From Methanocaldococcus indicus (GTDB taxonomy: Archaea > AGJL01 > Methanococci > Methanococcales > Methanocaldococcaceae), in contig NZ_CP186926.1 of the NCBI RefSeq assembly GCF_049554935.1, positions 32,001-96,000 on the forward strand: 64,000 bases of DNA, read 5' to 3'. The stretch's first letter is position 1, and every line of letters starts with the position of its first letter. This document shows positions 1,247 through 50,064 of this stretch, one piece after another. The notes under the pieces were generated by a model that ran no database searches, had not been told where the DNA came from, and saw only the letters and a list, made by a program, of their open reading frames with translations. The translations under genes and the position numbers were made by a program.

Positions 1247-1323
1247 GCCGCGGTAGTTCAGCCTGGGAGAACGCGGGACTGAAGATCCCGTTGTCGGGTG
1301 TTCAAATCACCCCCGCGGCACCA
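1247..1323 (+). tRNA. tRNA-Phe(GAA)
   Basis: GCCGCGG/CCGCGGC acceptor stem, CT-GAA-GA loop, TTCAAAT T-loop, encoded CCA. Confidence 0.96.
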
Positions 1324-1332
1324 TCTTTATGT

Positions 1333-1408
1333 GCCCCCATAGCTCAGTTGGTAGAGCGACGGACTGTTAATCCGTAGGTCGCAGGTTCGAGTCCTGCTGG
1401 GGGCGCCA
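1333..1408 (+). tRNA. tRNA-Asn(GTT)
   Basis: Cloverleaf, CT-GTT-AA loop, encoded CCA. Confidence 0.96.
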
Positions 1409-1424
1409 ATTTTATTTTTTATGT

Positions 1425-1499
1425 GGGCCCGTAGCTCAGCCTGGTCAGAGCGCTCGGCTCATAACCGAGTGGTCAAGGGTTCAAATCCCTTCGGGCCCA
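1425..1499 (+). tRNA. tRNA with CAT anticodon, probably tRNA-Ile2 (agmatidine) rather than Met
   Basis: CT-CAT-AA loop; GGGCCCG acceptor stem is Ile-like; no A1-U72 initiator pair. Confidence 0.85.
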
Positions 1500-1507
1500 C
1501 TTTTTTT

Positions 1508-1582
1508 GCTCCGGTGGTGTAGCCCGGCCAATCATGCGGGCCTTTCGAGCCCGCGACCCGGGTTCAAATCCCGGCCGGAGCA
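1508..1582 (+). tRNA. tRNA-Glu(TTC)
   Basis: GCTCCGG acceptor stem, CT-TTC-GA loop. Confidence 0.96.
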
Positions 1583-1612
1583 CTATATATTTAGTTTTTA
1601 TTTATTTCAATT

Positions 1613-1697
1613 GCAGGGGTCGCCAAGCCTGGCCAAAGGCGCCGGGCCTAGGACCCGGTCCCGAAGGGGTTCCGGGGTTCAAATCCCCGCCCCTGCA
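1613..1697 (+). tRNA. tRNA-Leu(TAG)
   Basis: Long variable arm; anticodon stem CCGGG/CCCGG with loop CC-TAG-GA. Confidence 0.93.
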
Positions 1698-1711
1698 CTA
1701 TTATTTTTTGT

Positions 1712-1785
1712 GGCCGGGGTGGGGTAGTGGCCATCCTGGGGGACTGTGGATCCCCTGACCCGGGTTCAATTCCCGGTCCCGGCCC
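1712..1785 (+). tRNA. tRNA-His(GTG)
   Basis: CT-GTG-GA loop, encoded G-1 and C73. Confidence 0.95.
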
Positions 1786-4395: not shown

Positions 4396-5649
4396 TTAGT
4401 TAATTAAGTTGTAGTATGCATTTTCAGCTTTTTCATAGATATCATCTTCATCTAAATTAACAAATTTTCCATCATCTAAAACTATTTCCCCATTTATTAT
4501 AGAATAATCAACAAATCCATTAAAAGCATATACTAAGTGAGAGTTTATATTTTCTTTTGGATATAAAAATGGTTTGTCTAACTTAATTAATACCATATCA
4601 GCTAAATTACCCTCTTTTATTTCTCCTGCTTTTATACCTAATGCTATAGCTCCATTTTTAGTAGCAAAATTAAAAGCCTCCTCAGCTTTTATAACAGTTG
4701 GATTTAAATTAACTCCTTTATGTAAAATAGCTGTTGTCTTTATTTCCTCAAAAAGGTTTAGATTGTTGTTACTACCACATCCATCAGTTCCTAATGTTAT
4801 ATTTATTCCTTCATTCAAAAGTTTTGGAATTGGTGCTATTCCAGAAGCTAATTTTAAGTTACTTATTGGATTATGAGAGATATGAATATTTTTGTTTTTT
4901 ATAATGTCAATTTCATTCTCAGTTAGATGAACACAATGGGCAGCTATAACTCTAACCTCATCAAAGAAATTAAATGAATTTAAATATTCAATAGGGACCA
5001 TTCCTGTTTTTTCTTTAATTGTATTTATTTCATCAATAGTTTCATTTAAATGGATATGTATTGGAACATTGTATTTCTTAGCTAAATTATTAACCTCTAA
5101 TAATAACTCTTTTGAGCAAGTATAGGGAGCATGAGGACCTAAAACAGGATAAATCCTATCATTTTTTAAATTTTTAATATAGTTTATATAGTATTCTGCT
5201 TTTTTTAACTCTTTTTCTCTTCTTTCTTCATCAAATAAATCAATCATTCCATAAGCTAAAAAAGCTCTTATACCACATTCTTCAACTGCTTTAATTATTC
5301 CCTCTAAGTAAAAATACATATCATTAAAGGTAGTTGTTCCTGTTTTTATCATCTCTACACATCCTAAGAGAGTTCCATAATAGACAATTTTCTCATTTAG
5401 TTTAGCTTCTAATGGCCAAATGTAGTTATTTAGCCACTCCATTAAAGGTAAGTCATCAGCTACTCCCCTAAAAAGAGTCATTGGTATGTGAGTATGAGTA
5501 TTTATCAGTCCTGGGATTGCTATCATATTTGAGCCATCTATAACAATATCATTCTTCTCCTTAACATCTCCAATCTTAGATATTTTATTACCTTCTATAA
5601 GAATATCTTGCCTCTTACCATTTACAAAAACATTTTTAATAGTTATCAT
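4396..5649 (-). CDS. dadD: 5'-deoxyadenosine / S-adenosylhomocysteine deaminase (amidohydrolase)
   Basis: PGLINTHTH, HAPYT, HLNET and GTDG..SNN motifs. Confidence 0.85.
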   Translation of the reverse strand: MITIKNVFVNGKRQDILIEGNKISKIGDVKEKNDIVIDGSNMIAIPGLINTHTHIPMTLFRGVADDLPLMEWLNNYIWPLEAKLNEKIVYYGTLLGCVEMIKTGTTTFNDMYFYLEGIIKAVEECGIRAFLAYGMIDLFDEERREKELKKAEYYINYIKNLKNDRIYPVLGPHAPYTCSKELLLEVNNLAKKYNVPIHIHLNETIDEINTIKEKTGMVPIEYLNSFNFFDEVRVIAAHCVHLTENEIDIIKNKNIHISHNPISNLKLASGIAPIPKLLNEGINITLGTDGCGSNNNLNLFEEIKTTAILHKGVNLNPTVIKAEEAFNFATKNGAIALGIKAGEIKEGNLADMVLIKLDKPFLYPKENINSHLVYAFNGFVDYSIINGEIVLDDGKFVNLDEDDIYEKAENAYYNLIN

Positions 5650-5707: not shown

Positions 5708-5768
5708 GTGCGTCAGTTCGCCCATCAATCATCATAAATCAGCAGCTACTCCGTTCATCATCCGCAGT
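5708..5768 (-). ncRNA. Box C/D methylation guide sRNA
   Basis: Minus strand reads TGCGG-ATGATGA(C)-ACGGAGTAGCTG-CTGA(D')-TTT-ATGATGA(C')-TTGATGGGCGAA-CTGA(D)-CGCA; terminal stem; two 12-nt guides; TATA-like box about 25 nt upstream. Confidence 0.93.
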
Positions 5769-5864: not shown

Positions 5865-5901
5865 GTTTTCATTCTTGTTTTAATAGACTAACGATTTAAA
5901 C
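5865..5901 (-). repeat. Solitary CRISPR-like repeat, copy 1 (37 bp)
   Basis: GTTTAAATCGTTAGTCTATTAAAACAAGAATGAAAAC; 32/37 identical to 24271-24307. Confidence 0.75.
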
Positions 5902-5987
5902 TCTTGGTGTTCATCCTTATTTTATATCTAAACTCCTACAAATATCTTCCATTTATTATCTCATTAATTACAAAGAACAACAAATTT

Positions 5988-6554
5988 TTATAATTTTCTA
6001 ACAATCTCTTTTAAAATGTTCAATTTTGCTAATTCTTCCAAAACTTCAACTTTTACATATGCTTCTTTTAAGTCTTTACCTAAGCACACAACTCCATGGT
6101 TTTTTAGTATAAGAACTTCTTCATCTTTTTTACTTACTGCTTTAGCTAATTCTAAGCTTCCAGCAGGATAATAATCAACATATCCAATCTTTTTTAGGAA
6201 AATTTTACCTTCAGGAGTTAAAAGTTCTATATCTTTATTGATTATTGAAAGAAATGTAGATATTAATGAATGAGTGTGAATAATTGCATTAATATTTTTT
6301 TTATTTCTATAAATTTCTAAGTGCATATTTATTTCTGATGAAGGTTTTCCTTTTATTACATTTCCATTTAAATCTACAATAGCTATATCTTCCTCTTTTA
6401 AAAGTCCTAAAATTGAGCCAGTTGGTGTAATATATACTTTATCATCTATCTTTATTGAGACATTACCTCCACTACCAACAACATACTTTCTATTGTATAA
6501 TAGTTGGCATATTTTTATAAACTCATTTATTCTATCTTTTAACATAATTTTCAC
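5988..6554 (-). CDS. fucA: Class II aldolase (L-fuculose-1-phosphate aldolase family)
   Basis: GGNVS, PSSE..MH, HTHS and NHGVV motifs. Confidence 0.85.
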
Positions 6555-22539: not shown

Positions 22540-24186
22540 ATGGAAGAAGTAATTAGAGAGATAGCTATAAAGAACAGGTTAAGGTATGGGCAAGCTAATC
22601 CTAAGAAAGTTTTAGGAATATTTCTATCAGAAAATCCTGAATATAAAAAGAAAGCTAAGGAAATCCTTCCAAAAATTGAGAAAATTGTTGAGGAAATAAA
22701 TAATATTCCAGAAGATGAGTTTAAAGAGCTCTCTAAAAACATATCTTTAGAGAGTAAGAAGAAAGAGAGAGAATTAATTTTACCAAATGTTAAGGACAAG
22801 GTTGTTTTAAGATTTGCTCCTAATCCTTCTGGTCCATTACATATAGGACATGCAAGAGCAGCTGTGTTAAATGATTATTTTGCAAAAAAATACAATGGTA
22901 AGTTTATTTTAAGATTAGAAGATACAGACCCTAAGAGAGTATTAAAAGAAGCTTATGAAATGATAAAAGAGGATTTAGATTGGTTAAATGTAAAAGTTGA
23001 TGAAGTTGTTATTCAATCAGATAGATTAGATATATACTACAAATATGGAGAAGAGCTTATAAAAATGGGAAAAGCTTATGTTTGTGAGTGTAATCCAGAA
23101 GATTTTAGAGAATTGAGGAATAAAGGAATTCCTTGTAAGTGTAGAGATAGGGATATAGAGGAAAATTTGGAGTTATGGAAAAAAATGCTAAATGGAGAGT
23201 TAAAAGCAGTTGTAAGGTTAAAAACAGATATAAAACATAAAAATCCATCTATAAGAGATTTTCCAATATTTAGAGTTGAAAAAACACCTCATCCAAGAGT
23301 AGGGGATAAATATGTTGTATATCCATTAATGAACTTTTCAGTTCCAATTGATGACCATCTTTTAGGAGTTACTCATGTTTTAAGAGGAAAAGACCATATT
23401 GTAAATACTGAAAAACAAAAATATATATATAAATATTTCAATTGGAATATGCCAGAATTTATACATTATGGAATTTTAAAAATAGAGGATACAGTTTTAA
23501 GCACATCTCAAATATATGAAGGAATTAAAAAAGGGCTATATTCTGGATGGGATGATGTAAGATTAGGAACATTAAGAGCTCTAAGAAGGAGAGGAATTAG
23601 AGCAGAGGCAATATATAAAATTATGATAAAGATAGGGATAAAACAGGCAGATGTTAGATTTTCTTGGGAAAATCTATATGCTATAAACAAAGAGCTAATA
23701 GATAAAGAAGCTAAAAGATACTTCTTTGTATGGAATCCTAAAAAAATGATAGTTAAAGATGCAGAAGAAAGAGTTATAAAACTTAGAAAACATCCAGATA
23801 GAGAAGATTTTGGAGTTAGAGAACTCTTTTTCAATGGAAAGATATATGTTGTTAATGATGAGATAGAAGAGAATAAAATGTATAGATTAATGGAGTTGTT
23901 TAACATAGTTGTTGAAAAAGTAGAAGATGATAAAATTATAGCTAAATATCATTCAGATGACTTTAAAATAGCAAGAAAAAATAAAGCTAAAATTATCCAC
24001 TGGATACCAATAGATGGAGCAATTAAAACAAAAGTACTTATGCCATCTGGGGAGATAAAAGAAGGTTTAGCTGAAAAAGATTTTAATGAAGTTAAAGAAG
24101 ATGAAATTATTCAATTTGAAAGATTTGGATTTTGTAGAGTAGACAAAAAAGATAATATAGTAGTTTGTTGCTATACCCATAGATGA
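22540..24186 (+). CDS. gltX: Glutamate--tRNA ligase
   Basis: [23 protein letters not shown] and QFERFGF motifs. Confidence 0.97.
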
Positions 24187-24270
24187 GTCTGATTGTTTAT
24201 ATTATTAAATTTTCTAATTAAGTTTTCTTGCTTTTATATACCCCCTTTCGAATAAGGATGAACAGCCAGG

Positions 24271-24307
24271 GTTTGAATCGTTAGTCCATTAAAACAAGGA
24301 TGGAAAT
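24271..24307 (+). repeat. Solitary CRISPR-like repeat, copy 2 (37 bp)
   Basis: GTTTGAATCGTTAGTCCATTAAAACAAGGATGGAAAT; CRISPR-type 3' end; upstream AATAAGGATGAACA shared with copy 1. Confidence 0.75.
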
Positions 24308-24450
24308 TTATAAGATTTCTATTTTATTTGTTAGTTTTACTATTTTTATTTATAGCTAAAAATTTAAATATATAATAATATAAAAATAAATAACTTTTTT
24401 AATAAAATCATTAATAAAAAAATTAATCCAAAAATAATAAAAGTGAAATT

Positions 24451-26421
24451 ATGAACATTTTTGATATTTATTACAAAAAATTTTCAGAGTTAATAGAGTT
24501 AGAAAGAAACTATGAAAAAGAGTTTCACAAGAAAGAAATTTTAAGATTGGGCAAAAAAAGAGAAAATGTAGGAAGAGCAATATTAAATTTAAAAGCTAAA
24601 TTTTTAGGAGAAAGTTTAGGTTGTAAATTAGTAAGATTTGGTAGAAAGAAGGAAATAAAAACTGAAATATCTCCTGGAGATGTTGTTTTAGTTAGTAGAG
24701 GCGAGCCATTAAAAAGTGATTTGTATGGGAATGTTGTTTATGTTGGAAAGAGCTTTATAGATGTAGCTTTTGATGTAGATTTACCAAAATGGCTATTTAA
24801 AGAAAGGGTTAGATTGGATTTATTTGTTAATGATATAACATTTAAGAGAATGAAAGAAGCATTAAAAGAGTTTGTAGAAAAAAGAGAAAAATTAGCTTTA
24901 ATAATTTTAGGTTTAGAAAAGCCAGAGAAATCATTTAAAACTGATATAAATTTAGAATTTGGAGATAAAAAACTTAACATATATCAAAAAAAAGCTGTTA
25001 AAGAAGCTATTTTAAGCAGAGATTTATATCTTATTCATGGACCTCCAGGGACTGGAAAGACAAGAACTTTAACAGAAGTAATATATCAGGAGGTTAAATT
25101 CAATAAACATAGAGTTTTAGCAACAGCTGACTCAAATACAGCAGCAGATAACATATTAGAGTATCTTTTAAAAAAATATCCAGATTTAAGAGTTGTAAGA
25201 GTTGGACATCCTACAAGAATCTCAAAAGAGCTAATTGAACACTCACTCCCATATTTAATAGAATGCCATGAGAAGTATGAAGAAATTAAACAATTAAAAG
25301 CAAAAATTTTATTATTAAAAGAGGAAAGAGATAAATATACTAAACCTTCTCCCAAATGGAGAAGAGGTTTGAGTGATGAGCAAATACTAAAACTATCAAA
25401 AAAGAAAAAAAGTGTTAGAGGTATCCCAAAAGAAAAGTTAGAAAGTATGTCAAAATGGATTTTAAAGAATATTAAACTAAAAAAGATAGTAGATAGAATA
25501 GAGAAACTAAGCAAAGAAATTATTCATGATATTATACTAAATTCTGATGTTGTTGTATCAACAAACTCTATGGCTGGAAGTGAAATTTTAAAAGATTATC
25601 ACTTTGATGTTGTTGTTATAGATGAAGGTAGCCAAGCTATGGAGCCAAGTTGTTTAATCCCAATAGTTAGGGGAGATAAACTTATTATGGCAGGAGACCA
25701 TAAGCAACTACCACCAACAGTTTTAAGTGAAAATGAAGAACTTAAAAAAACTTTATTTGAAAAGTTAATTAACATGTATCCAGAATTTTCAACTATTTTA
25801 GAAATACAGTATAGAATGAATGAGAAGATTATGGAATTTCCAAATAAAATGTTCTATAACAATAAATTAAAGGCAGCTGAAGAAGTTAAAAATATAACTT
25901 TGATGGACTTAGTTGATAAAGTTGAGGAAGAAGATAAAGATATTGTTAATAAAATTCCTGTCCAATTTTTCCATATAGATGGAAAAGAAAGAAAAGAAAA
26001 AGAATCATTCTCATACTACAATATTGAGGAAGCTGAGAAAGTTTTAGAAGTTGTAAAAAAACTTATTAAGTATAATATTCCTGTTAGTGTCATATCCCCT
26101 TATGATGCCCAAGTTAGATATATTAGAAAGCTGTTTGAGAAAAATAATATAGATGTAGAGGTTAATACAGTTGATGGTTATCAAGGAAGAGAAAATGAAG
26201 CTATTGTTATATCATTTGTCAGAACTGAAAAATTTGGATTTTTGAAAGATTTAAGAAGATTAAATGTAGCTATAACAAGAGCTAAAAGAAAATTAATCAT
26301 TATTGGAAATGAAAAACTATTAAAGAAAGATAGTGTTTATAATGAACTTGTAAAATGGGCTAAGCAAGTTGAGATGGGTGAAAATGTTGATAGGAACTCC
26401 ATTATCAAAAAATGCAATTAA
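24451..26421 (+). CDS. IGHMBP2/Upf1-like SF1 helicase
   Basis: [36 protein letters not shown] and [11 protein letters not shown] motifs. Confidence 0.92.
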
Positions 26422-49995: not shown

Positions 49996-50064
49996 GTTTT
50001 CAAGAGGTATATATAAAAGCCAGAAAACTTAATTAGAAAAATTAACATATTAAATAATGTAATA

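Follow-up and report, generated by a model that had tools for sequence, protein, structure and literature searches.

Loci that hold a single CRISPR repeat are not without precedent. The 1996 genome of M. jannaschii, as summarised by Haft et al. (2005, PMC1282333), was described with 18 loci and with two truncated long repeats (leaders), each ending in a single short repeat. Orphan and degenerate arrays have been treated as signs of CRISPR-Cas degeneration (PMC8616872), and a study of E. coli and Salmonella admitted loci with "one single repeat" (Touchon and Rocha 2010, PMC2886076). Solitary repeat units and mini-arrays form a further group (Shmakov et al. 2023, PMC10120712; for viral solitary repeat units, PMC8616872).

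The genome examined here carries three units, two of them in the stretch of DNA that was analysed (the window, 64,000 nucleotides), which share features with each of these systems. Like the M. jannaschii stubs, they consist of a shortened leader ending in one repeat and are dispersed away from cas genes. Unlike the M. jannaschii stubs, as far as these are covered by the summary in PMC1282333, their 37-nt repeat belongs to a class that differs from every array of the host, where repeats are 30 or 31 nt long. With the orphan and degenerate arrays they have in common that repeats occur without adjacent cas genes and in minimal number, although the orphan arrays treated in the cited sources usually have at least two repeats or stand at conserved positions, whereas each host stub has one repeat. 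The solitary repeat units and mini-arrays resemble them in having a near-identical single repeat with a promoter-like box upstream; as portrayed in the two papers, however, those units occur in viruses or within or next to cas loci, and their repeats match the host arrays, none of which is true of the host stubs. The regulatory units presented there also have a spacer partly complementary to a promoter, whereas no target above the level of shuffled sequences was found for the stubs. The anatomy of the units is thus already known in the genus, and the only new twist is a repeat class unlike that of every working array in the host. Because this class is absent from the host arrays, the stubs would record the loss of a whole class and not shrinkage within an active one.

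Three units of leader and solitary repeat

The window corresponds to G000:C1:32001-96000 of the host genome (G000), which has a main contig of 1.414 Mb, a second contig of 22 kb and a G+C content of 28%. A preliminary description had reported two dispersed 57-mers, each made of a 20-nt flank and a 37-nt CRISPR-like repeat, and both were found where it had placed them, with the letters it had quoted: copy 1 at window positions 24251-24307 (+) and copy 2 at 5865-5921 (-). Their flanks are identical at 17 of 20 positions. The 37-mers mismatch at five positions, by transitions only, as had been reported. In the annotation of the window both copies are intergenic and lie on the same strand as their neighbouring genes, which are housekeeping genes. 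With as many as 10 substitutions allowed, a genome-wide search gave three copies of the 37-nt class in 1.44 Mb. Copy 3, which the preliminary description did not include, lies outside the window at G000:C1:747491-747527 (-) and follows the same flank (19/20 identical to that of copy 1). Since there are three copies genome-wide and the reversed-pattern control gave 0 matches in 40 genomes, the match between the 37-mers is not due to chance.

The features discussed below are as follows, in window coordinates:

4396..5649 (-), deaminase gene, neighbour of copy 2 beyond the C/D-box sRNA
5711..5765 (-), C/D-box sRNA, between the deaminase gene and copy 2
5865..5901 (-), solitary 37-nt repeat, copy 2, with four changes from the congener consensus and its weak hairpin lost
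5902..5965 (-), what is left of the copy 2 leader, about its last 64 nt, with a mutated proximal TATA box
5988..6554 (-), FucA-like aldolase gene, neighbour of copy 2
22540..24186 (+), gltX, neighbour of copy 1
24198..24250 (+), distal (5') leader fragment of copy 1, with the box TCTAATTAAGTTTTCTTGCTTTTATATA at 24213-24240 and a consensus TATA box at 24233-24240
24251..24270 (+), leader end of copy 1, the last 20 nt, a host-specific variant that aligns with the leader ends of G003 and G039
24271..24307 (+), solitary 37-nt repeat, copy 1, 36/37 identical to the congener array repeat, with the last base changed from C to T
24451..26421 (+), IGHMBP2-family helicase gene, neighbour of copy 1
50010..50058 (-), isolated distal leader box without a repeat, a fourth fragment, 86% identical to query positions 893-941

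A functional array would have at least two repeats with a spacer between them, and there is a single repeat at each of the three loci. The earlier statement that a second full repeat is lacking near each copy agrees with our alignments, in which the 160 nt downstream gave a local alignment score of 8 against a shuffle mean of 8.0-8.3. Nor was a degenerate second repeat detected in the 160 nt downstream of copies 1-3, where 63-75% of 300 shuffles scored as high or higher. The downstream sequences of the three copies are unrelated to each other.

The reading of the units as a leader end plus a single CRISPR repeat proved to be correct, as the flank aligns with the final 20-100 nt of array leaders in the congeners. 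Leaders of the congener arrays of the 37-nt class are about 400 nt long, and the three copies have kept very different amounts of them. The leader of copy 3 is full-length; aligned over 370-429 nt with each of ten true leaders, it shows 66-72% identity (BLAST, E 1e-28 to 1e-52). For copy 2, the leader remnant and the repeat together are 82% identical over 93 nt to copy 3 and 80% identical over 90 nt to G003 (BLAST). At copy 1, a stretch upstream of the leader end (positions 358-404 of the extract) matches positions 76-118 of the true leader at locus L017, with 93% identity over 43 nt at about -355 to -312, and the same distal piece is 89% identical to positions 89-134 of the copy 3 leader (both BLAST). 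A distal piece of about 45 nt is therefore fused to the leader end, which implies an internal deletion of about 290 nt. The box that had been noted upstream of copy 1, TTTATATA at 24233-24240, is indeed present 31 nt 5' of the repeat start; this TATA box is part of the distal leader piece.

Genome-wide, the 28-nt distal box has only three occurrences: at copy 1, at copy 3 and, with one mismatch, at window positions 50010-50037 (-). It was not found in the leaders of the host's own arrays. By alignment, the flanks of copies 1-3 are closer to each other than to any congener leader end, so the units derive from arrays that were resident in the lineage and not from a recent import.

The repeats themselves have decayed to different degrees, measured against a congener consensus for which the repeat was taken exactly as it stands in G013 and G005. 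By this standard copy 1 is changed at a single position. The changes in copy 2 are all G/C to A/T transitions and affect 4 of 13 G/C positions and 0 of 24 A/T positions; the minimum free energy of the repeat hairpin is -0.5 kcal/mol in this copy and -5.6 kcal/mol in copy 1. Even in copy 1 the hairpin is weak (6 bp, z -1.15) and indistinguishable from shuffles. In copy 3 the first 30 nt contain two changes, and the last 7 nt are degenerate at the same place at which the terminal repeats of the G013, G005 and G006 arrays are degenerate. By this comparison of sequences, copies 2 and 3 are decayed. The final 11 nt of copy 1, including the terminal T, are identical to the 3' end of the host 31-nt repeat, and from 8 nt before its end the copy 1 repeat reads 5' AUGGAAAU. 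Together with the next 18 nt these 11 nt can form a hairpin of 13 bp with four G-U pairs (window 24297-24325, +), which is followed by a U-rich stretch and which, in an 80-nt context, is within the range of shuffles (z -0.84).

Other features were observed in this part of the window. The C/D-box sRNA matches the Rfam family RF01139 (sR2) with 57.6 bits against a gathering score of 42. It follows copy 2 on the same strand after about 100 nt, and a TATA-like box of its own, AAGTATATATAGC, stands about 30 nt upstream of it. Six tRNA genes are clustered at window positions 1247-1784 (+). In the first 40,000 nt of the window, gene order relative to G005, G008 and G013 is kept in blocks of about 1-4 genes, with coding DNA that is 75-85% identical.

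The 37-nt repeat class and the CRISPR-Cas systems of the host

Judged by its matches in other genomes, the solitary 37-mer is a genuine CRISPR repeat. Of 40 genomes of the order, 11 contain it with at most 3 mismatches; the reversed control had 0 matches. Regular arrays with a period of about 72-75 nt were present in three congeners, with 78 matches in G003, 45 in G013 and 57 in G015, and the G013 array repeat is the same as copy 1 except for the final base, which is C in G013 and T in copy 1. A few copies each were found in G005, G006, G008, G009 and G010, plus two genomes of another genus. The preliminary description had allowed for a case in which no CRISPR repeat of this genome or its relatives would be similar to the 37-mer; the arrays in G003, G013 and G015 show that such repeats exist. 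It had also called 37-nt repeats of this kind typical of methanogens. This holds, and the family in fact extends well beyond them, as the 3' 22-mer of the repeat was found, among the matches listed, in arrays of many further archaeal and bacterial groups, such as Methanosarcinales, ANME-2, Bathyarchaeia, Desulfobacterales, Brocadiaceae and Clostridia.

The host's own arrays are of another kind. A k-mer scan and pattern search gave about 12 arrays with 30/31-nt repeats of two sub-kinds, which share a different leader end, and a strict 30-nt pattern had 64 matches in the genome. A small array of the 30/31-nt class is also present on the 22-kb contig, which is presumably a plasmid, at G000:C2:10763-11141. 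The cas content of the host comprises one Cas6, encoded at G000:C1:958121-958879, one Cas1, a type I-B system and a type III-A system, at the following loci:

G000:C1 ~958-967 kb, type I-B operon, with, in this order, cas6, an IS6 transposase gene, an unassigned 517-aa gene, cas7, cas5, cas3, cas4 and cas1
G000:C1 319.7-322.4 kb, type III-A csm1

Matches to Cas6, Cas1, Csm1, Cmr2, Cas7b and Csc2 all fell outside the window or were absent, in agreement with the earlier observation that the window has no cas genes, and Csc2 was not found anywhere in the host genome. From the two window copies the distance to the I-B operon is about 860 kb, and that to csm1 is more than 220 kb.

The distribution of the two repeat classes in the genus was compared with that of the cas genes. 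The strict 30-nt pattern occurs in 9 of the 17 genomes of the genus and has zero matches in G003, G013 and G015, each of which has a single Cas6. The host Cas6 is 79% identical to the one from G013, where the only repeats detected were of the 37-nt class. More generally, it is about 73-80% identical to 12 of the 16 congener Cas6 sequences that were compared (73-79% for the 11 besides G013), whichever repeat class their genomes have, and 59-61% identical to those of G015 and G003; a rough FastTree tree of Cas6 showed no split by repeat class. The host Cas1 is 77% identical, over the comparable 142 aa, to its counterpart in a 37-nt-class genome. G006, which is of type I-B and of the 30-nt class, keeps three mini-arrays of the 37-nt class with spacers and full leaders, and these indicate that both repeat classes can coexist in one genome.

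A simple tie between repeat class and CRISPR subtype was considered and rejected. The G013 locus is of type I-D (cas6, csa3, an 854-aa gene, csc2, csc1, cas3', cas4 and cas1), and G003, which has the 37-nt repeat, has a Cas7b match, G001, which has the 30-nt repeat, has Csc2, and G015 has neither.

Side by side, the cas loci of the host (L038, G000:C1:955000-972500) and of G013 (L040, G013:C1:398000-414000) are 71-80% identical in Cas6, Cas4 and Cas1. Between Cas6 and Cas4/Cas1, no similarity is detectable between the I-B effector genes of the host and the I-D effector genes of G013, and the comparison looks like the swap of an effector module inside a conserved frame. An IS6-family transposase gene lies between cas6 and the first effector gene of the host I-B operon (L038:3843-4487, -).

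Probable array collapse and alternative explanations

Our preferred explanation is that the units are probably relics of arrays that collapsed, and that the lineage has since abandoned their 37-nt repeat class. Each unit is a piece of a class-specific leader followed by one repeat. In the ancestral arrays, recombination between direct repeats would have deleted all spacers and left one repeat. Copy 3, with its degenerate end, may be a hybrid left by recombination between the first and the terminal repeat. Later deletions would have shortened the leaders, and AT-biased mutation would be eroding the repeats. The genome now depends on the 30/31-nt arrays with their different leader. The present stubs would no longer acquire spacers or yield a useful guide RNA. 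At most, the leader-derived TATA box may still drive transcription of copy 1, and the resident Cas6 may cut the transcript, to give an RNA without function.

Several options had been left open in the preliminary description, namely seeds or relics of mini-arrays, Cas6 processing sites in mRNA, and crRNA-like regulatory or anti-CRISPR RNAs. Relics gave the best fit, through the unequal truncation of the leaders, the mutations in copy 2 and the degenerate 3' end of copy 3. The others found no support, as the downstream sequences are unrelated and without targets above the level of shuffles and the cas loci are far away.

The points that oppose a view of the units as entirely dead mainly concern copy 1, in which 36 of 37 repeat positions are intact, a consensus TATA box lies 31 nt upstream and the 3' end is host-like. 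Given the near-intact repeat, the TATA box at a suitable distance and the host-like last 11 nt, some transcription of this copy, and its processing by Cas6, may persist. Cutting in particular is plausible since its last 11 nt equal the end of the host 31-nt repeat. The similarity of the host Cas6 to that of G013 and the coexistence of both classes in G006 also speak against such a view.

A stronger proposal is that copy 1, and perhaps the other copies, are transcribed and cut by Cas6 8 nt before the repeat end, and that the product, with the resident 5' handle, enters the type I-B Cascade or the type III-A Csm and acts as a regulator or decoy. The TATA box at 24233-24240 and the shared 11-nt end would suit this proposal, as would the 79% identity of the host Cas6 to that of a genome using the same repeat, and for type I systems regulatory roles of mini-arrays and single repeat units have been described (PMC10120712). 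The regulatory units treated in that source lie in or beside cas loci, however, whereas the host units lie at the large distances from the I-B operon and csm1 given above. The sequences that would serve as guides also argue against it. The search for targets of the 30-40 nt downstream, which had been proposed earlier, gave no genome match that we would place beyond shuffles: for three 36-nt downstream sequences the best non-self matches in the host genome covered 27, 26 and 29 of 36 positions, and the shuffles (20 per query) averaged 26-27 and reached at most 28. Copies 2 and 3 are damaged in or beside the would-be handle, and a conserved position was shown in 0 of 16 congeners, in a region where gene order is shuffled generally. 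On balance we regard functional expression of these units as unlikely. A version confined to copy 1, in which the leader deletion set the TATA box 31 nt upstream and a Cas6-cut, crRNA-like RNA with an 8-nt handle serves as a decoy or regulator for Cascade or Csm far from the cas genes, would have the resident Cas6 cutting copy 1 because the Cas6 lineage serves both the 30-nt and the 37-nt class; it seems quite unlikely to us.

It is also quite improbable that the units are seeds, that is, empty but competent arrays of a leader and one repeat that the resident Cas1-Cas2 could use. Copy 3 does have a full-length leader, the host Cas1 is close to that of a 37-nt-class genome (77% over 142 aa), and mini-arrays that combine a full leader with 1-2 spacers are common in G005 and G006. 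But only copy 3 has its leader complete, and the 3' end of its repeat is degenerate; copy 1 keeps only about 20 nt of the repeat-proximal leader, and copy 2 has a short leader and four mutations. The genome has no array of the 37-nt class, so there is no sign of acquisition. By analogy with the coexistence of both classes in G006, an "empty but usable" state of the stubs can nevertheless be envisaged.

The dispersed positions of the copies bring to mind the termini of a MITE or another mobile element, or solitary units carried by viruses or plasmids as an anti-CRISPR device. For both window copies, the genes on either side are adjacent in none of the 16 congeners, so that the copies are at sites where gene order differs from all of them, and the flanking genes are only about 75-83% identical to those of all 16. 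These breakpoints are not special, however, because the first 40 kb of the window are shuffled in blocks of 1-4 genes, and for the same reason we rejected synteny breaks as evidence of collapse in place. The flank is homologous to array leaders rather than to an element end, and the neighbours are housekeeping genes. A degenerate 33-nt pattern of the repeat had 0 matches on viral contigs, and the host-specific junction of leader end and repeat had 0 matches in two scans of metagenomes. A mobile or viral origin is, on this evidence, hardly credible. Collapsed arrays of an abandoned class remain the explanation that we prefer, and under it the stubs show that the lineage once had 37-nt arrays, which are still dominant in some congeners, and then moved wholly to the 30/31-nt class. 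The stubs themselves would be an ordinary by-product of array turnover, and their value is mainly for annotation and history.

A hybrid array and trailer elements in the congeners

In G008, the congener whose flanking genes are most similar to those of the host, a hybrid array was observed (L005:602-1537, G008:C18), in which thirteen 30-nt repeats are followed by a 59-nt gap and then by a repeat of the 37-nt class. With this array, and with related Cas6 and Cas1 proteins serving both classes, the genus is suited to testing the repeat-length tolerance of Cas6 and of the integrase.

A small, G+C-rich element was also noticed, consisting of GGTATACCAATAGG and then a short hairpin, sometimes with a second hairpin in front. 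Two copies are present in the host genome, at C1:499815 (+) and C1:1054137 (-), neither of which adjoins the stubs. In G005, G009, G010 and G013 the element follows the last repeat of arrays of the 37-nt class. It was located at the trailer ends of L003, L006, L007, L008, L017, L201 and L202, and in G005 it is followed by half a repeat.
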